DNA from: Candidatus Babelota bacterium
Lineage (GTDB): Bacteria; Babelota; Babeliae; Babelales; JABDEC01
DNA length: 64,000 nt
Direction of reading: 5' to 3'
Assembly: GCA_013286795.1 (NCBI GenBank)
Contig: JABDFA010000001.1
Location: forward strand, 104,970 to 168,969
Each line of letters opens with the position of its first letter. Positions within the stretch are counted from its first letter, which is position 1. Shown one piece after another: positions 7,697-52,340 of the stretch. The notes under the pieces were generated by a model. That model ran no database searches and had not been told where the DNA came from. It was given only the letters and a program-made list of their open reading frames with translations. The position numbers and the translations under genes were made by a program.

Positions 7697-7780
7697 GCCA
7701 GAAAACTCAAGCTTTTAAGCTGGGATGAATGGCTTCGAAGAATTTCGCGCGAAACAACGGCTTTTAAGCCGTTGAGCGCT
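7697..7780. repeat. GC-rich cluster of short perfect palindromes immediately downstream of recF
   Basis: AGCTTTTAAGCT (7710-7721), CTTCGAAG (7733-7740), TTTCGCGCGAAA (7743-7754) and CAACGGCTTTTAAGCCGTTG (7755-7774). Read on the minus strand it contains GCGCGAAAT...TCGAAG, also present in the element at 12155-12246. Confidence 0.5.
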
Positions 7781-8869
7781 TCATTTGGGGTCATTGATGT
7801 CTATTTGAATTATCTGTGCATTTTTTGAGACCAAGAGCTCTTTTAGGTATCCATTTGATATGGGGCATGTAAATATTAACTGATTTTTTAGGCTTAATAA
7901 AGCAGTAGACAAAATTGAAATGTTCTTTTGATCTAAATCAGTTATGAAATCATCTAATAAAAATATAATATTTTGATAACCTTCTTTTTTTAATATATTA
8001 ATTTGAGCTATTTTTACTAAAAGAACTAAAAGTTTTTGTTGTCCTCGGGAGGCAAAGGCTCGAGATTTTTTATTTTTAAAATAAATATGAAAATCATCTA
8101 GATGTGATCCGAACATTGATTTTCCCAAATATTTTTCACTAGCCAATAAATTATTTTTGTTATTTAAAAAATTATCAAAAGAACTCCACGACCCTTCCTT
8201 GTCTTCATATTTTAAATTAACTAAGCAATTTTTATCTATATAAATATTTAAAAGATCATTTAGTTCTATTTCAATATTTTGTAAGATAGTCCTCCGTAAA
8301 TCACGAATAATTTGTGATTGTTCCCAAAGTTGCTTTGTCCAAATCAAGTATACCTCCTGATCAAAAACTTGATTTTGCAGTATTTTATTTCTGTTATCTA
8401 AAATTTGTTTATATTTTTTACAAGTTTGCAGAAAAGAAGCATTTGTAAGTAATATATATTGATCTAGAAAATTTCTACGATTTTCTGGACCAAGCTTAAC
8501 TAAATCTAAATCTTCTTCTGTCAGAGTAATAACTCTGTAAGAATTTAGTAATTCTTTGAAAGATAGGATAGATTTTTGATTAATTTTTACGAGTCGCTTT
8601 TTTCCAGCCAATCCTGCTTGTATCTCTGTTGTTTGTAGATCATCTTTAAAGGTAGCCTTTATAAAAAAGCTGCTTTTTTCGATTTTTATAAGTTCTTTTG
8701 CTATATGCGTTCTAAAAGATTTTAGATAGCCTAAGTAATGTAGAGCTTCTAAAATTGAAGTTTTTCCTGAACCGTTATCCCCTTCAATTAAAATAATTGG
8801 AGACTTGAAGTTAAAGATTACTTCTTCAAAACAACGAAAGTTTTTTAATTGTAAACTAACCAGTTGCAC
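7781..8869 (-). CDS. recF: DNA replication and repair protein RecF
   Basis: MQLVSLQLKNFRCFEEV.F.F...I.LIEGDNGSGKTSILEAL (Walker A). SMC-like signature GSHLDDF..YF....SRAFASRGQQKLLVLLVKIAQ. Walker B IIFLLDDF. Located downstream of dnaN. Confidence 0.9.
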   Translation of the reverse strand: MQLVSLQLKNFRCFEEVIFNFKSPIILIEGDNGSGKTSILEALHYLGYLKSFRTHIAKELIKIEKSSFFIKATFKDDLQTTEIQAGLAGKKRLVKINQKSILSFKELLNSYRVITLTEEDLDLVKLGPENRRNFLDQYILLTNASFLQTCKKYKQILDNRNKILQNQVFDQEVYLIWTKQLWEQSQIIRDLRRTILQNIEIELNDLLNIYIDKNCLVNLKYEDKEGSWSSFDNFLNNKNNLLASEKYLGKSMFGSHLDDFHIYFKNKKSRAFASRGQQKLLVLLVKIAQINILKKEGYQNIIFLLDDFITDLDQKNISILSTALLSLKNQLIFTCPISNGYLKELLVSKNAQIIQIDINDPK

Positions 8870-8888: not shown

Positions 8889-10013
8889 TTAATTATTATA
8901 AGAAGGTGAAACAGGCATAACTAAATAAATATAATCTATATCTTTTTCATTTGATTCAAAAATTATTGGTCTATTTGAATCATTCAAATAAAAATTAACT
9001 TTATTTTGTTCAAATGCTTGTAATCCATTTAAAAGATAAGGGGTATAAAATCTGATTGTAACCTCATCTGAATTAAATTCCTCTAAAGATATTTGTTCAT
9101 GCAGTGATCCTATTTCTTTATTTGAAATAGACATTTGTAGATTTGTGTTTTCAAAATCAAACTTTGTTGCAAGGAATTGTCCTGAAAGTAAACAGGCTGA
9201 ACGCCTTAAAGATTTTAGTAGACTTGGCTTATTAATTATACCTTTTTTGAAACCGTCTTTATTTAGAATTTGTTCATATTGAGGAAACTGTTCATTTAAA
9301 ATTTTAGTAAAAAAATTAAAAGAATCGCCAGAAAACACTAATTGATTAATGCATTTGCCTAAGAAGATTGATTTATCACTAACGTTTTCTATAATTTTTT
9401 TTAATTCAAAAACTGCTCTTCTTGGTAATAACCATGATTTTGGTTCACTTAAAGAATAGTTTTTTGATATAACTTGAGCTAAGCAATGACCATCTGTAGT
9501 TGTCATTTTTATTTCTTTATTGGTTATTTCTAGCAATAAACCATTAAGTGCAGGGTTGGAATTATTTTGTGGAATAACAAAAGCGACCTTATTTAACATT
9601 TCTAGCAATAGAGCTGTATCTATTTGCATCAAATTTTCAATTCTTTCTGGAAAAGAAGGGAACTCATCTGCATTTTTTATATTTAATGATAACTGTATAG
9701 GGCCAGAATGTAATACTATTTGATTGCTTTGTATATTAAATTTAAGATCTCCATCAAGTTCTTTTACCAAATCAAAAAAACGCTTGCCGGAAACTAAAAA
9801 AGATCGAGTCTCTTCTATGTTGCTTTCTTGAGCAAAGCAACTTTGTTGCAAGCTTATTTCCAAATCTGTACTTTTTAAAATTATTTCTTTATGTCCGGTA
9901 TTAAATAATATAGAAGATGTTACATCTAATGTTGTTCGTTTTGTACAAATTGGTTGCATGGCTGACAAAATAGACGCTAAATTTTTTTGTTCTAAACTAA
10001 ATGAATGTTCCAT
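8889..10013 (-). CDS. dnaN: DNA polymerase III beta sliding clamp
   Basis: 374 aa of three-domain clamp length. Strings ILSAMQPICTKRTTLDVTSSILF, MTTTDGHCLA, LLPRRAVFELKKI, RFYTPYLLNGLQA and RPIIFES..DIDYIYLVMP are typical of DnaN. dnaN-recF order. Confidence 0.9.
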   Translation of the reverse strand: MEHSFSLEQKNLASILSAMQPICTKRTTLDVTSSILFNTGHKEIILKSTDLEISLQQSCFAQESNIEETRSFLVSGKRFFDLVKELDGDLKFNIQSNQIVLHSGPIQLSLNIKNADEFPSFPERIENLMQIDTALLLEMLNKVAFVIPQNNSNPALNGLLLEITNKEIKMTTTDGHCLAQVISKNYSLSEPKSWLLPRRAVFELKKIIENVSDKSIFLGKCINQLVFSGDSFNFFTKILNEQFPQYEQILNKDGFKKGIINKPSLLKSLRRSACLLSGQFLATKFDFENTNLQMSISNKEIGSLHEQISLEEFNSDEVTIRFYTPYLLNGLQAFEQNKVNFYLNDSNRPIIFESNEKDIDYIYLVMPVSPSYNN

Positions 10014-46405: not shown

Positions 46406-48184
46406 TTAAACCCAAACGTATCGAGCTCCATCTTCTTTATTTTCTTTTTCTTCTTTCTCACTTTTTTCATCAGCATCTTTCTTTCTAGAATCCCTTAAAG
46501 GGTTATGCCCATCACCCTTTGGTGCAGGAGCAGGAGCTGGTGCAGCAGGCGTTGGCTTAGAATCATTCAAAGCTTCGTCTAATCCTTTGATGATATATTC
46601 CATACTGCCCTGCCACGCTTCAAGTCTTTCAAGATCTTCTTTTAGACTATCATTTTCTTCAAAAACTTTTCTTTCTTTCTTTTCTTGTTTTCTACGATAA
46701 TGTTCATCATCCTCATCTTCTGCATATGGATTAAATTTATTATTCAATTTAAGAATTATAGCAAGATCTTCCCCTATTGCTTTAACTCGATCATAAGCTT
46801 CAATGATCGATTGTAAATGATCTGCACGAGGTTCCTCGGTGAGAATTAATAAAGCAGATCTTGATTTTCTAACAACTTTATCTAAAGCATCAAAATCTGT
46901 TCTAAACTTTGCTCTTAAATCTCTTGTTTCCTTAATCTTCTTTAAAACCTTTTCACAATTTTCTTTAGCTTTCAAAACAAAGTTTTCATCTTTTTTATTG
47001 TCTTTTTTCTGATCGCCAGAAAGAGGTTTTAGCTGAGCGCTAACGATTTCTCTAATCGCCATCAAACGACCATATATCTTTTGAATTTCAAAATAAACTG
47101 AAGCAGCTTTTTTGCATATACCCTTACAGTTTGCTTCTTTATCCATAAACCAAGATAAGGGTTGATTTCCACACATCCAATCAATCATCCCTGATTCTTC
47201 AGGAACAGAAGGCAAGTAAGACAAAATACCCGTACCAATTTTAGAACGCAACTTATGATCATTAAATTTACGAGTAAAGATATCTTTCAAAGCATCAAGT
47301 TTATCTTCTCTAAAAAATCTCATACCACTTACAACTGTCTTACCTGTAAATCTATTAGCATCTGCGCCTCTATTAAGATCATCTTGTAGTTCATCCTTAA
47401 AAATCTCGAGGAGCTCTTCTTCAAAGATATCAATACAGTTACCTCCCACCAAATCATTTAAGGTATCTTGCATTTCTTCAAGCTTTTCTAACTCAGATTC
47501 CATCTGATCTTGAATAACTCTCAAAGTTTCTTGTGTTAAAACATCTGGTTTGTCTTTTTCAAAAACAGGAAATACTATTTTATTACCTTTACTAAGTAAA
47601 TAAAGTTTGCCATCAATCTTTGCATCACTAACTAAACATTTTAAAACTTCATTATCTTTAGCTGGTTTATCTTTAAATGCATCTACAATGTTGCCATTTC
47701 TAAAGAACCTTCCATCTTCATCATAATTTTTTCTCCATCCCCAGAAATGCCATTTTTTAGAAATTTCTTCAGGTTTTTTTCTATCACTAGCCTTAACGAC
47801 TTTGTTATCATAAGACTCTTCAATTTCTTCTAAGGCTTTAATTGCACTATTTCTTGAATAGATTTTATATAAAATTCCAGCAGCGCCTATTCCAGCTGCT
47901 CCAAATAATTTTGTATAGGTACCAAATTCTTTAATATAATTTTTTGTTGCAATAGCTTTGTTCCAAAGAAAAGCTCTTTTATACCCAGCAAGACCAAGAG
48001 CTGTTCCAGCTATTATAGTTTTTTTAACCTTGCCTTCAGACTCCCAAAACTTTTTAACGGAGCCTGTTATAACATCTACCGTACCTGAACCTAATTTTTT
48101 AAACCCACGAGTAACTTCAGCTGAATTTATTGATCCAACAACAAGAAAAGAAAATAAGAATAATGATTTTGTTTGAATTTTCAT
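46406..48184 (-). CDS. Large exported/membrane hypothetical protein with an acidic and Pro-Ala-rich C-terminus
   Basis: The ATG at 48184 is preceded by GGAG (leader MKIQTKSLFLFSFLVVGSINSAE); the track start at 48199 has no RBS. Two further hydrophobic segments, long helical regions, and TPAAPAPAPAPKGD near the end. Confidence 0.55.
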   Translation of the reverse strand: MKIQTKSLFLFSFLVVGSINSAEVTRGFKKLGSGTVDVITGSVKKFWESEGKVKKTIIAGTALGLAGYKRAFLWNKAIATKNYIKEFGTYTKLFGAAGIGAAGILYKIYSRNSAIKALEEIEESYDNKVVKASDRKKPEEISKKWHFWGWRKNYDEDGRFFRNGNIVDAFKDKPAKDNEVLKCLVSDAKIDGKLYLLSKGNKIVFPVFEKDKPDVLTQETLRVIQDQMESELEKLEEMQDTLNDLVGGNCIDIFEEELLEIFKDELQDDLNRGADANRFTGKTVVSGMRFFREDKLDALKDIFTRKFNDHKLRSKIGTGILSYLPSVPEESGMIDWMCGNQPLSWFMDKEANCKGICKKAASVYFEIQKIYGRLMAIREIVSAQLKPLSGDQKKDNKKDENFVLKAKENCEKVLKKIKETRDLRAKFRTDFDALDKVVRKSRSALLILTEEPRADHLQSIIEAYDRVKAIGEDLAIILKLNNKFNPYAEDEDDEHYRRKQEKKERKVFEENDSLKEDLERLEAWQGSMEYIIKGLDEALNDSKPTPAAPAPAPAPKGDGHNPLRDSRKKDADEKSEKEEKENKEDGARYVWV

Positions 48185-48316
48185 AAGACTCCAAAACATT
48201 GAACATTTCTATTAAATAATTAGATAAAAATAGACCCTACATGCTCAATAATACTACATTTATAATAAAAGACAATAAGAAAAAATTTGCTTGCCCTACG
48301 AAGCCTTGGCGAAGTA

Positions 48317-48393
48317 TGGTGCGTCCGACAGGGATCGAACCTGCGGCCTGCAGATTAGGAATCTACCGCTCTATCCAACTGAGCTACGGACGC
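48317..48393 (-). tRNA. tRNA-Arg (anticodon CCT), CCA encoded
   Basis: The minus strand reads GCGTCCG-TA-GCTC-AGTTGGATA-GAGC-G-GTAGA-TTCCTAA-TCTGC-AGGCC-GCAGG-TTCGATC-CCTGT-CGGACGC-A-CCA. This is a full cloverleaf with a GTTCGATCC T-arm. Confidence 0.93.
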
Positions 48394-48556
48394 AAAAAAT
48401 TTATTTAATTTTCCTATGCAAATTAAATAATAAATTTATATAATATCAAAAACATCAAGAATCCTGCTGGTCATTTGTTTCACAAGTGACTGGCCCTACT
48501 ACGCTACTAACGTAGCTACGAAGGGCTGGCCTGCCATACGAAGCCTTGGCGAAGTA

Positions 48557-48632
<76 letters not shown>

Positions 48633-48676
48633 ATGGTAATATATTTTATATTAAATAGAGGAGAAAAAGTAGTACA

Positions 48677-49174
48677 ATGTTAAAAAATATTAAAAAATTT
48701 AGCTTCTTCCAAGCTTTTTCAATCGCATTATTTCTCTTTGCAATATCAACACCCGAGACAAGCTGCAATAATGCACAAGTGAATTTAAAAGCATCTGAAA
48801 AAAATGATTCTAAAGAAAATTATGTATTGGAAAAAATTAAAATAATAGAAGAACAAATTTCTCAAACTAAAGAATTTATAAAAGATCAAAGTGAAGTAAA
48901 AAAAATAAATCAAATTCAAAAAGAAATTGGGAATTTAAAATTAGATTGCGAAAAACAACAATCTTCAACCGCCATGTTTATTCTAGGGCCCTTAGAAACT
49001 GTATATTCTGTAGCCAAAGATAGAGATTTTAAATATAAATTATTACAAGTAAGTAATAAATTGACAGCTGTTCTAGAATTCAAAGATGGAATTATAAAAA
49101 AAGAAGTCTCTTCTAATTTAAATAAAAGTATTAAAAGAAATGGGGAACTTATTATAAAATTAACAAAAAAGTAA
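48677..49174 (+). CDS. Hypothetical exported protein (165 aa)
   Basis: Signal-like MLKNIKKFSFFQAFSIALFLFAISTPETS and a K/E-rich body. No family recognised. Confidence 0.5.
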   Translation: MLKNIKKFSFFQAFSIALFLFAISTPETSCNNAQVNLKASEKNDSKENYVLEKIKIIEEQISQTKEFIKDQSEVKKINQIQKEIGNLKLDCEKQQSSTAMFILGPLETVYSVAKDRDFKYKLLQVSNKLTAVLEFKDGIIKKEVSSNLNKSIKRNGELIIKLTKK

Positions 49175-49242
49175 AAGATTATTGTATAATAGGTAATAAT
49201 ATTTATATTATATGAATAAACTTTCTATAGGGGATATTACTT

Positions 49243-51615
49243 ATGAATAAACTTTCTATAATTTTAAGTATCTTTATAGCTTTTTTCATAAATATAATAA
49301 GATCACAAGAATTTGAAGAGAAACTAATTCAAGAAGCAATGAGGTTAAGTTTAGAAACAGCTGAACAAGAGCAAAAATCACGCGAAAAAATCGAACAAAG
49401 TCGTCTTGAGTCTATTGAAAATCAAAGAAGATTGTTTGAAAAATTATCACAGCTTAAAAAACCACAAACAGACATCGAAAAAAGTAGAAGATTGCAAGAA
49501 GAAAAGGTTATAGAAGAGAGCAGACATGCTGCAATTGCAAAGCAACAAAAATTACTTGATAAATTTAGGGGCAATAAAAGCAAGCTAGATCAGTTGGCTT
49601 CTGCAGACAAAGATAACAAACCTTTACAAGAAATCGCACAAACTTTTTCAACATTAGCCGAAGACAAAGAGGCCGAAGAAGCAAAATTAAATTATGAAAC
49701 AGAACAAGCACTGCAACAAAGTATAGCCCTAGAAGCAGCAAAACTAGAAATTCAAATGGATGAGGCCGCTAAAAAGCAAAAAGGTATTGAGATAAAACCT
49801 AAAGCTGTCAGTCAAAAAAAAGAACCTGCATCCCCTAAACCCCTACTAAATCTTATCATTACATTAGACGATACAGAAACGTATGACAAACCAATTATAA
49901 CTGGTGAACTTGCAGTTGCTTGTTGCCAAGCCCAAAACCCAATAATTACATTAGGCTATAGTCTACGAGTGTTATTAGATTGGCAACAAAATGATGAATA
50001 TTTAAGAAATAAACCTTTAATTTCAGATGAAATATGGAATTATTATAAAGTACAAAACAGTGATTTCTATCTGCTTATACCAAAAGAATATTCAAGAGAG
50101 ATTTATTATAATTTCAGACCCTTAGATTTCAAAATCGATCATGGAGACCTGGATCCATATGAAGCCCTAATAGGTTTTAAAATCAATACTGAATCAATAT
50201 TAAAAAAAATTACAGCGGATGAAATTAAAAAAACAGTCAATCTAGAATCTTATAATAGAGACATTAAAATTGAACCTTTATCTAATATTTTTGTTCATGG
50301 TCAAGATGATTTCTTTAGACTTTGGAATATTTATTTAACTGGACATGGGGTAGCTGCCAAAAAAATATCTGATATTTCTGATAAAACATATTCAAATTTT
50401 GTAAAAGAAGTAGATATTAAAAATGCAAGAATATGTAATTTATCTATAGAAGAATTTAGAAAACTAATATCATTTTTTAATGAAAAAATAAGAGTTAACT
50501 TTTTTTATTATGTATCTTGCTATGCTGGTGGATATAATAGAATATTGCCCTATATAACAAATATTATTAATTCTAGAGGTAATATTACAAGTAATAACAA
50601 GCCAAAATTTACAATAGCAACAAATTCAACAACCGATGCAGTAGTTCCTATTTTTTTTAATCTATCAAAACAATGCGTCAAAAAACCTAATCAAATAGAA
50701 AAGGGATTTTTTGATTATTTAACATTTTTTGATCAATTATATCAACTTAGCTCTGGTATAAAATCAACTATTTTTAATGATGAAGAGTTAAAAAAAATAT
50801 TAGCGCCAATATCTTTTATGGGAGAATTAGCCAAAGAAGCAATTCCTCTAGAATCTTTACCTCAAGTAATGTCACCTGAAACCGAAGTATTTAGAGTAGT
50901 GCCTCTTGAAAGTGACATTGAAATCATATCAAATGTATCTTTAAATAAAAATATTTTAGAAAAAAAACCAATAAATTCAGAAAATAAGCGTGCTATTTTA
51001 ATATATCCACAAGATATTCCTATAGAAATTAACATAAAATGTAAAGCATTTGATAATTTTCCTATTATAATTTCTATGACCCCAGGAATTGGACTAACAA
51101 AATTGGAAAGCTTAAATATAAATACCAGCTTAACAAATTTGATAAAGTCACTAACTTATGGAAAATCAGTTTTCGAAAAATATTTTTATATCAAAAAATT
51201 AAATATTATTAATGAGCTCAGAGGACTCTCTGATATTGGAAGAAAAACTAATTTATACAATGTCTTATTTTATATTAAATATAATAAACCTAGAGTTTAC
51301 AGAAGAGAAGCGCTACCTGAAGATATATCCGCATTTGTTATTTTTGTAGATGATAATAATGACATGTATTTCTTTGATTTTAAAACCAATAGGTTAAAAA
51401 AAATAAAACAAGTAAATAAAAAACTTGAATTTCCTAATATGCTGGTTCCATATTTTACTTCAAAAGAAGGGCCTTATGCACTTGTAAGTAATCAAATAGA
51501 AGATATAAATAAAGCATTTAATTTCAAAGCCCTAGTAAGAACTTTATCAACTAAAGATGAATTTGATTATATAGAAAAATTGGTTAAATATATTGAAGAC
51601 ACACTAGAGAGTTAA
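49243..51615 (+). CDS. Large exported protein with two N-terminal UIM-like motifs and a central clan-CD (legumain/caspase-like) His-Gly...Cys dyad candidate
   Basis: Leader MNKLSIILSIFIAFFINIIRS. EEKLIQEAMRLSLETAEQE (aa 25-43) and ETEQALQQSIALEAAK (aa 152-167) fit the UIM core acidic-x-hydrophobic-x2-A-x3-S-x2-acidic. FRLWNIYLTGHG (His368, nt 50344-50346) and VNFFYYVSCYAGG (Cys426, nt 50518-50520) resemble legumain IYFTDHG / FYIEACESG. Confidence 0.6.
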   Translation: MNKLSIILSIFIAFFINIIRSQEFEEKLIQEAMRLSLETAEQEQKSREKIEQSRLESIENQRRLFEKLSQLKKPQTDIEKSRRLQEEKVIEESRHAAIAKQQKLLDKFRGNKSKLDQLASADKDNKPLQEIAQTFSTLAEDKEAEEAKLNYETEQALQQSIALEAAKLEIQMDEAAKKQKGIEIKPKAVSQKKEPASPKPLLNLIITLDDTETYDKPIITGELAVACCQAQNPIITLGYSLRVLLDWQQNDEYLRNKPLISDEIWNYYKVQNSDFYLLIPKEYSREIYYNFRPLDFKIDHGDLDPYEALIGFKINTESILKKITADEIKKTVNLESYNRDIKIEPLSNIFVHGQDDFFRLWNIYLTGHGVAAKKISDISDKTYSNFVKEVDIKNARICNLSIEEFRKLISFFNEKIRVNFFYYVSCYAGGYNRILPYITNIINSRGNITSNNKPKFTIATNSTTDAVVPIFFNLSKQCVKKPNQIEKGFFDYLTFFDQLYQLSSGIKSTIFNDEELKKILAPISFMGELAKEAIPLESLPQVMSPETEVFRVVPLESDIEIISNVSLNKNILEKKPINSENKRAILIYPQDIPIEINIKCKAFDNFPIIISMTPGIGLTKLESLNINTSLTNLIKSLTYGKSVFEKYFYIKKLNIINELRGLSDIGRKTNLYNVLFYIKYNKPRVYRREALPEDISAFVIFVDDNNDMYFFDFKTNRLKKIKQVNKKLEFPNMLVPYFTSKEGPYALVSNQIEDINKAFNFKALVRTLSTKDEFDYIEKLVKYIEDTLES

Positions 51616-52340
51616 ATTTTTTGAAAATAAGCTAAAAACTCCTTGTTGCCGGATGATCCAAGTATAGGTGAATCTGTATAACCAATAAGCTTAAAGTCAG
51701 ATTTAGCTATACCTTCGGTCACTCGCTTTATCACTTCAGTATGAATTCTAGGATCGCTTACAATTCCACCTCTGCCAACCTGTTCTCTTCCTGCTTCAAA
51801 TTGTGGTTTTATCAGAACTATCAATAATCCATTATCTTTTAATAAATTATAAACACTTTGTATAACTTTTAAAATAGATATAAATGAAAGATCTAAAGTT
51901 ATCAGATCAACTTTTTCTGGCAAATTTTCAAGTTCACGTAAATTAGTTCGTTCATATAAAATTACTCGCGAATCATTTCTAATTTTTTCATGTACTTGGC
52001 CATATCCAACATCAACACCATAGATTTTATTAACACCATGTTGTAAAAGACAATCAGAAAATCCACCTGTTGATATACCAGCATCCATAACAATCAAATC
52101 TTTTACGTTTATATTAAAATGATTTAAAGCCTTTTCTAACTTAAATCCCGCCCTGCTGACATATTTAGGCTCCTCAAAATCAAAATTCAATATAGCATCT
52201 TCTTTGAACAATGACCCAGCTTTAGTAATAACAACCCCATCTACTTTAACTTTTCCCTGAACAATCAAACTTGAAATCTTGTTTCTACTAATCTGTGGAA
52301 AATTATCTTTAAGCAATTGATCCAGTCTCTTTTTTGCCAT
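51612..52340 (-). CDS. tlyA: TlyA-family rRNA 2'-O-methyltransferase (S4 domain plus FtsJ-like MTase)
   Basis: KKRLDQLL..... SR.K...LI..G.V.V.G (S4 domain). VSRAGFKLEKAL, the SAM motif VMDAGISTGGFSDCLLQHG, and LDLSFISL-like LITLDLSFISILKV. Confidence 0.88.
   Translation of the reverse strand: MAKKRLDQLLKDNFPQISRNKISSLIVQGKVKVDGVVITKAGSLFKEDAILNFDFEEPKYVSRAGFKLEKALNHFNINVKDLIVMDAGISTGGFSDCLLQHGVNKIYGVDVGYGQVHEKIRNDSRVILYERTNLRELENLPEKVDLITLDLSFISILKVIQSVYNLLKDNGLLIVLIKPQFEAGREQVGRGGIVSDPRIHTEVIKRVTEGIAKSDFKLIGYTDSPILGSSGNKEFLAYFQKI

Follow-up and report, generated by a model that had tools for sequence, protein, structure and literature searches.

Clan CD cysteine peptidases are defined by a strand-His-Gly / helix / strand-x-Cys unit, and the caspase-hemoglobinase fold is an α/β/α sandwich with a six-stranded sheet of order 2-1-3-4-5-6. 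In caspases and legumain, the S1 pocket is built from the positions that follow strands 1 and 5. The hallmark of the clan, as reportedly set out by Chen, Rawlings and Barrett in 1998, is a hydrophobic block, x-G-H-G, a spacer and a second hydrophobic block that runs into S-C. Dependentiae (TM6, Babelota) live as obligate intracellular parasites in protists and are widespread, and to our knowledge there is almost no experimental knowledge of how they manipulate their hosts. Signal peptides are present on a very large share of Dependentiae proteins, and the effectors proposed for the phylum are secreted proteases and ankyrin proteins, possibly released via outer-membrane vesicles (PMC6561590). 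Here we describe a gene of a Candidatus Babelota bacterium at 49243..51615 on the forward strand of a 64,000-nucleotide (nt) stretch of contig JABDFA010000001.1, which is called the window below; window coordinates are on that strand (+) unless marked (-). On balance, and with modest confidence, we read its 790-residue product as a Sec-exported modular protein in which a core of residues ~196-535 would be a His368/Cys426 cysteine endopeptidase on the clan CD plan and the ends would be targeting modules.

A candidate His368/Cys426 dyad and the clan CD pattern

Two hydrophobic strands of the core each end in a candidate catalytic residue. WNIYLTGHG (residues 361-369, 50323..50349) closes on Gly-His368-Gly, with the His codon at 50344-50346, and NFFYYVSCYAGG (residues 419-430, 50497..50532) leads into Ser-Cys426 and Gly-Gly, with the Cys codon at 50518-50520. 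The earlier note on this DNA had proposed this pair, 58 residues apart, as a catalytic dyad, and translation confirms both positions. An alignment of 150 sequences, the window protein and 149 family members that mostly share 20-37% identity with it, has no invariant columns besides His368 and Cys426, the opposite of the lack of conservation in homologues that had been named as grounds for dropping the idea. In a subset of 111 sequences they are joined by Pro280, the last residue of the family signature strand YLLIP (residues 276-280, 50068..50082). Gly367, Gly369 and Trp361 are each 98% conserved, and Cys426 is preceded by Ser or Thr and followed by [YF]-[AS]-G-G.

An AlphaFold (AF2) model of residues 195-790 built with 111 sequences has a predicted local distance difference test score (pLDDT) of 90.2 and a predicted template modelling score of 0.92; a model built with 10 sequences, at pLDDT 59.6, was left out of the fold search. 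Strands and helices alternate through the core (~196-535), where strand 360-367 leads to His368, followed by helix 402-414, strand 417-424, Ser425-Cys426 and helix 431-437. In the model this order of elements is compatible with that of the caspase-hemoglobinase fold, with sizeable insertions, one of which is a conserved WxxYK...YLLIP hairpin. The clan CD hallmark is likewise present in the sequence, WNIYLTG-H368-G standing before NFFYYVS-C426 with Gly after the His and a small residue before the Cys.

These features suggest a familiar mechanism. His368 would lie at the end of one parallel β-strand and Cys426 just past the next, both facing a cleft along the sheet's C-terminal edge. In catalysis, the Cys thiolate would attack the peptide bond that follows a P1 residue seated in the S1 pocket, and the His would serve as general acid/base. 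Two conserved acidic residues are candidates for that pocket, Asp209 (49867..49869; Asp/Glu in 86%) at the C-terminal end of the first strand and Asp465 (50635..50637; Asp/Glu in 83%) just past strand 457-461, after the fifth. Their topological placement at S1-pocket positions in the model weakly suggests a preference for a basic P1 residue (Arg or Lys). A clan CD fold, protease activity and this P1 preference are what we infer for the core.

Several results weigh against this assignment. The residue at Cys-2 is a variable hydrophobic one and not the Asp, Glu or Gln usual in clan CD. Foldseek, recommended in the earlier note as a check of the fold, gives no PDB match at E<=0.001. Legumain recurs weakly as the only recurring protein among the PDB matches listed, in six rows (4n6o, 4nom, 4nok, 4d3y, 4aw9 and 7fql; E 0.35-1.3), with template modelling (TM) scores of 0.34-0.35 on the target and root-mean-square deviations of 7-15 Å; nothing was found among the viral structures of BFVD. 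Searches of PDB sequences by phmmer and hmmsearch returned coiled-coil and pilin noise only, whether the query was the whole protein, the 111-sequence profile or a profile of the 109-position His-Cys core. A Pfam census of 72 members (the window protein and 71 relatives) at E<=10 found no clan CD family even weakly, Peptidase C13 (PF01650) included.

Profile-profile comparison (hhalign) covered C13 among the clan CD families. The C13 profile comprised 75 sequences, with human legumain and PIGK verified against database/PDB plus 65 metagenomic legumain/GPI8 homologues; a homologue search with human legumain had returned near-identical vertebrate legumains only, and a metagenome scan supplied the diversity. 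Against this profile the core aligned over 61 columns (P=0.0014, probability 17%), pairing His368 with legumain His148 and Cys426 with legumain Cys189, and against GPI8 alone over 12 columns (P=0.0006, probability 29%), pairing IYLTGHG with IYMTGHG. Segment-shuffled templates, however, reached the same score as the native ones. In the single-sequence control the GPI8-type score was high solely via the 7-residue His strand, and legumain-type scores stayed at background, one unrelated open reading frame (ORF) reaching 26.9. By sequence the similarity to C13 is at the level of a motif, carried by the IYLTGHG strand, and the family is not C13 in the Pfam sense. Because the segment-shuffle and decoy controls show a motif-level signal, we do not claim homology to C13. 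A relaxed hhalign pairing of W265/YLLIP with the C13 segments WxNYRH/GIPD was rejected, as the family segment is a β-hairpin in the model with W265 on a strand, while the C13 Trp segment is helical. Sortase, L,D-transpeptidase, clan CE, permuted papain-like, PTP and α/β-hydrolase assignments were rejected on residue order, secondary-structure context and missing signature residues, by reasoning from known family signatures. One metagenomic C13 homologue (L081, 1501-2220) has the atypical motifs FYWSGHG and AEACYAGS, the latter like the SCYAGG of the family; judged by these motifs, it might be a bridge between C13 and the Dependentiae proteins.

Clan CD is probably the best-fitting known plan for the core, short of a demonstrated homology. 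What stands of the original proposal of a clan CD protease is the hallmark pattern and the strand-end placement of both residues in the model; it does not extend to a demonstrated caspase-hemoglobinase fold. The rival that survives best, unlikely in our view yet to be taken seriously, is a His/Cys enzyme on a new α/β fold that is non-homologous to clan CD and has arrived at HG...C by convergence; it could be a hydrolase, an acyl- or amidotransferase or a deubiquitinase-like isopeptidase. Such an enzyme would account for a very confident model that has no significant PDB neighbour, for a family that no profile method ties to any known one beyond the motif-level C13 likeness, and for a core of ~340 residues that, with the WxxYK...YLLIP hairpin and other insertions, far exceeds a caspase domain. 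The strand-His-Gly / helix / strand-x-Cys order, the His-before-Cys arrangement and the recurrent legumain matches are, however, what clan CD predicts, and such geometry is not known to us from any other enzyme family with His before Cys.

A modular Dependentiae family with variable ends

The whole protein has no Pfam or NCBIfam match at E<=1 and no PDB sequence match, and when the protein and its parts were scanned against Pfam and NCBIfam, nothing came up beyond the result for a ubiquitin-interacting motif (UIM) in orthologues described below. An exhaustive profile search over 1.84 billion cluster representatives (clusters at 50% identity) matched 1,636 at E<=1e-3 and 517 at E<=1e-30, where a word-indexed search had found a handful of relatives, including a hypothetical protein of Candidatus Babela massiliensis. 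All members that carry an organism name are from Dependentiae or Babeliales. No description of the family was found in the Dependentiae literature searched, and it is a large family uncharacterised there and in Pfam and NCBIfam.

Members often occur in tandem. The 790-residue protein is the sole member in the window. A syntenic JGI contig (L001) encodes an orthologue 91% identical to it (P0001), preceded by a 652-residue tandem paralogue (P0002), and it holds at least three copies of a module made of the 5' untranslated region (UTR) and leader, two of them with full paralogues and a third interrupted by a scaffold gap. Paralogue copy number at this locus differs, then, between close strains with 91%-identical orthologues. 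Babela massiliensis (L082 = HG793133.1, 693960-716290) has a tandem pair of 776 and 741 residues, and the Babela family member is annotated only as hypothetical. This pair sits 2-6 kb downstream of two genes for UCH (PF00443) ubiquitin hydrolases that are encoded on the opposite strand, an arrangement (L082 4105-8309 and 10001-14650) that could mark a small ubiquitin-related effector neighbourhood or be coincidence. The 'two clostripain-like C11 peptidases' of the Babela genome paper might conceivably be this pair.

The conserved core is framed by parts that vary. The ORF opens with ATG and has its stop codon inside the coordinates given above, and both these and the hydrophobic leader are as first described. 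The leader (residues 1-21, 49243..49305; N-terminus MNKLSIILSIFIAFFINIIRSQ) consists of MNK, with one Lys, a 16-residue hydrophobic core and IRS|Q, and reaches a Kyte-Doolittle value of 2.9 in a 12-residue window by heuristic and inspection. It looks like a Sec signal peptide; inspection found no lipobox Cys in it, and the 16-residue h-region could alternatively be a signal anchor. The same hydrophobicity heuristic finds a comparable N-terminal segment in 118 of 152 family proteins. Next comes a poorly conserved E/K/Q-rich helical linker (residues 22-195, 49306..49827), with long helices at low pLDDT in the 10-sequence model; most of the linker is missing from P0002 and from distant members. 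The α/β core with the dyad (residues 196-535, 49828..50847) is followed in the model by a β-rich domain (residues 540-725, 50860..51417), for which Foldseek gave no convincing match in PDB or BFVD. This domain holds a family motif S-M-x-P-G-x-x-x-H whose His is present in 82% of the 111 members; at this position (residue 619, 51097-51099) the window protein and its closest relatives have Thr. The model and alignment end in a family-variable helical segment (residues 734-790, 51442..51612), and in some members ankyrin repeats replace or extend the same region. Several long members carry such repeats, C-terminally and once N-terminally, with ankyrin in place of UIM.

Two UIMs had originally been read into the N-terminal helix. 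Both peptides translate as described, but only motif 1 (EEKLIQEAMRLSLETA, residues 25-40, 49315..49362) is plausible. Its EE-K-L-I-Q-E-A-M-R-L-S-L fits the UIM core, an acidic run and then hydrophobic-x-x-Ala-hydrophobic-x-x-Ser-hydrophobic, with Ala32 and Ser36 as the core residues, and it would stand at the very N-terminus of the predicted mature protein. A regular expression for the core, composed after motif 1 had been seen, matches nothing else in the long window ORFs (19,039 residues in all); when residues 22-215 were shuffled 20,000 times with their composition preserved, it matched 14 of the shuffles. In the profile check, where the Pfam UIM family (PF02809) has a gathering cut-off of 21 bits, an orthologue passes in isolation and the window copy goes undetected: motif 1 is unreported at E<=10 both as a peptide and in the full protein, whereas the P0001 motif EEEQIQQAMRLSLETAEQ, which differs from it at three positions, scores 23.7 bits as an isolated peptide and 17.0 bits in the full-length protein. 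The full-length P0002 scores 18.6 bits.

P0010, a family member whose identity to the window protein is 36%, has a pair of UIM-like motifs straight after its leader, EDKEIQEAINRSLEE and DLEKAIRLSLEH (residues 37-55 and 105-125), the second at 16.8 bits against the same profile. By these matches a UIM-bearing subclade exists beyond the immediate orthologues, and the recurrence points to selection acting on the motif within one subclade. The UIM-like motif is limited to the closest relatives and P0010 and lies outside the conserved family core. The second proposed UIM, motif 2 (ETEQALQQSIALEAAK, residues 152-167, 49696..49743), is unsupported. It lacks a hydrophobic residue at Ala-3 and so fails the core pattern, it has no UIM profile match, and it is located in a low-confidence segment of the helical linker that is deleted in P0002. 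Plausibly, then, the protein has one sub-threshold UIM and not two, an accessory of a subclade rather than a feature of the family. The 'new effector architecture' of the earlier note is likewise better seen as one variant of a modular family whose other members bear ankyrin repeats.

For the ends, ubiquitin binding and host delivery are what we infer. The variable N- and C-terminal appendages would act as targeting modules, and the ankyrin repeats of other members fit modular host targeting. In the window protein, a UIM-like helix carried by the long, flexible helical linker could tether the enzyme to ubiquitin-decorated host proteins or membranes. The leaders, the ankyrin fusions and the restriction of named members to Dependentiae probably favour a host-directed role. 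On the other side of the scale stands, beside the Pfam silence on motif 1, that we know of no secretion route by which the protein would reach a host. A more specific version, in which the UIM subgroup is ubiquitin-guided and cuts ubiquitinated host proteins or ubiquitin and ubiquitin-like modifiers, as part of a Dependentiae-wide clan-CD-like family with swappable eukaryote-binding modules, is an improbable extension of this reading.

A bacterial envelope role is also unlikely, decidedly so in our estimate. A clan-CD-like enzyme of this kind, either a processing protease or a GPI8/sortase-like transpeptidase, would mature or anchor exported proteins, and motif 1 would be a chance feature of the E/K/Q-rich helix. 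It would explain a leader that is Sec-type only, with no host-delivery signal known, and a UIM that is below the Pfam threshold in the window protein and missing from most members, and the closest motif match, GPI8, is a transamidase. Ankyrin fusions, tandem duplication with copy-number change and rapid divergence are, however, typical of host-interaction families and not of housekeeping enzymes, and the UIM-like motif recurs right behind the leader in P0010, at 36% identity. A non-catalytic structural or adhesin-like surface protein that keeps His368 and Cys426 for folding or metal binding is scarcely credible, since, although the C-terminal domain is large and β-rich, a lone invariant His and Cys, flanked by Gly at strand ends in a family whose members share 20-37% identity, are the mark of a catalytic dyad, and a metal site would require more conserved ligands. 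Exported His/Cys peptidases with variable host-targeting ends remain the most economical reading.

Genomic setting of the gene

The gene had been placed directly after a tRNA-Arg pair, which is not borne out. Between the pair, tRNA-Arg(CCT) and tRNA-Arg(TCG) at 48317-48393 and 48557-48632 (-), and the gene lies a 165-residue leader-bearing ORF (48677..49174) that has no family match in Pfam and NCBIfam scans and a 170-residue counterpart in L001. That contig shares with the window the tRNA-Arg pair in the same place, the small ORF, an FtsJ-like methyltransferase and an HtrA-like protease. On the far side of the tRNA pair, 46406-48199 (-) encodes a 597-residue E/K-rich protein that bears a leader and, close to its C-terminus, a PAAPAPAPAP stretch. 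It has no assigned family and is kept as a 579-residue gene in L001; from its sequence it is a further secreted-protein candidate.

In a window of ~30% G+C, a Shine-Dalgarno-like GGGGA (49230..49234) stands 8 nt 5' of the ATG. Just before it, at 49212..49229 and 13 nt 5' of the true start, sequence comparison finds an exact duplicate of the first 18 nt of the gene, ATGAATAAACTTTCTATA, a direct repeat of its first six codons (original at 49243-49260). This copy starts a 12-codon mini-ORF out of frame and is joined at 'TATA' to a conserved 5' UTR, TATAGGGGATATT, the same 5' module that is found in front of the paralogues in L001. From its sequence the repeat looks like the scar of a lost or deleted upstream paralogue. 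Copies of the 5' UTR and leader in L001 are at 7780-8010 and 9980-10010, one of them cut by a run of N, and the repeats are probably what caused that scaffold gap. At its 3' end the gene overlaps a convergent FtsJ/TlyA-like rRNA methyltransferase gene (51612-52340, -) by 4 nt, the last sense-codon base and the stop codon (51612-51615), and no intrinsic-terminator-like site was found across 48200-52000.

Significance and comparison with known systems

Pfam and NCBIfam are blind to a family that comprises over 1,600 clusters at the 50% identity level and whose members frequently stand in tandem and are equipped with leaders and ankyrin or UIM-like modules. It probably represents a new family of clan-CD-like cysteine peptidases that carry new accessory modules. 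If it does belong to clan CD, it would be a new family at MEROPS level and probably among the main effector protease arsenals of Dependentiae, and His368, Cys426 and Ala32/Ser36 would give a defined, testable handle on the interaction of Dependentiae with their hosts. If members are ubiquitin-guided, they would be the first enzymes of clan CD type acting on the ubiquitin system, and intracellular bacteria would have a new means of stripping off or exploiting the ubiquitin marks of the host. Should the fold prove to be other than clan CD, the family would still be of interest as a His/Cys enzyme that is modelled with confidence and yet lacks a structural neighbour. The mechanism we propose is familiar, the fold is unproven and the link to ubiquitin is tenuous; the family is large, phylum-specific and experimentally tractable.

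Among known systems, the C13 peptidases (legumain; GPI8/PIGK) come closest in motif. The IYLTGHG of the family answers to IYMTGHG in human PIGK and yeast Gpi8, and in both a hydrophobic strand with x-Cys follows ~40-60 residues past the His strand, with a helix between. The family differs in that it has neither the W-x-N-Y-R-H S1 motif nor an Asp/Glu at Cys-2, its core is ~340 residues with large insertions, its flanking domains are others and it is restricted to Dependentiae. The caspases, metacaspases and orthocaspases of C14 and the clostripain and gingipains of C11/C25 share the His-Gly...Cys order with it. None of these gave a HMMER or Pfam match or stood among the best 50 Foldseek matches listed, with no direct profile-profile comparison made. 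The Cys motif of metacaspases is D-S-C-H-S-G, which the S-C-Y-A-G-G of the family resembles. Metacaspases, gingipain R and clostripain have the Arg/Lys specificity that the conserved acidic residues would suggest for the family, and gingipains and C11 enzymes carry a β-rich domain behind the catalytic domain, as the family does.

In ataxin-3, USP25/USP28 and OTUD1 a short UIM helix on a cysteine-protease domain recruits ubiquitinated substrates, an architectural analogy to the window protein with its UIM-like helix and putative cysteine protease. These enzymes are papain-like and of clan CA, with Cys before His, and cut after ubiquitin Gly76, whereas the family has His and then Cys; unlike theirs, the UIM of the window protein is a sub-threshold, putative one. 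Within the phylum, the searched text of the Babela massiliensis genome paper holds no mention of the family (PMC4378268). That text describes an unusual number of ubiquitin-system proteins, among them secreted C19 UCH hydrolases, Ulp1-like peptidase/AAA fusions, F-box and RING proteins (PMC4378268). As far as that text goes, they differ from the family in catalytic type and resemble it in being leader-bearing and presumed host-directed proteins of the same phylum (PMC4378268).

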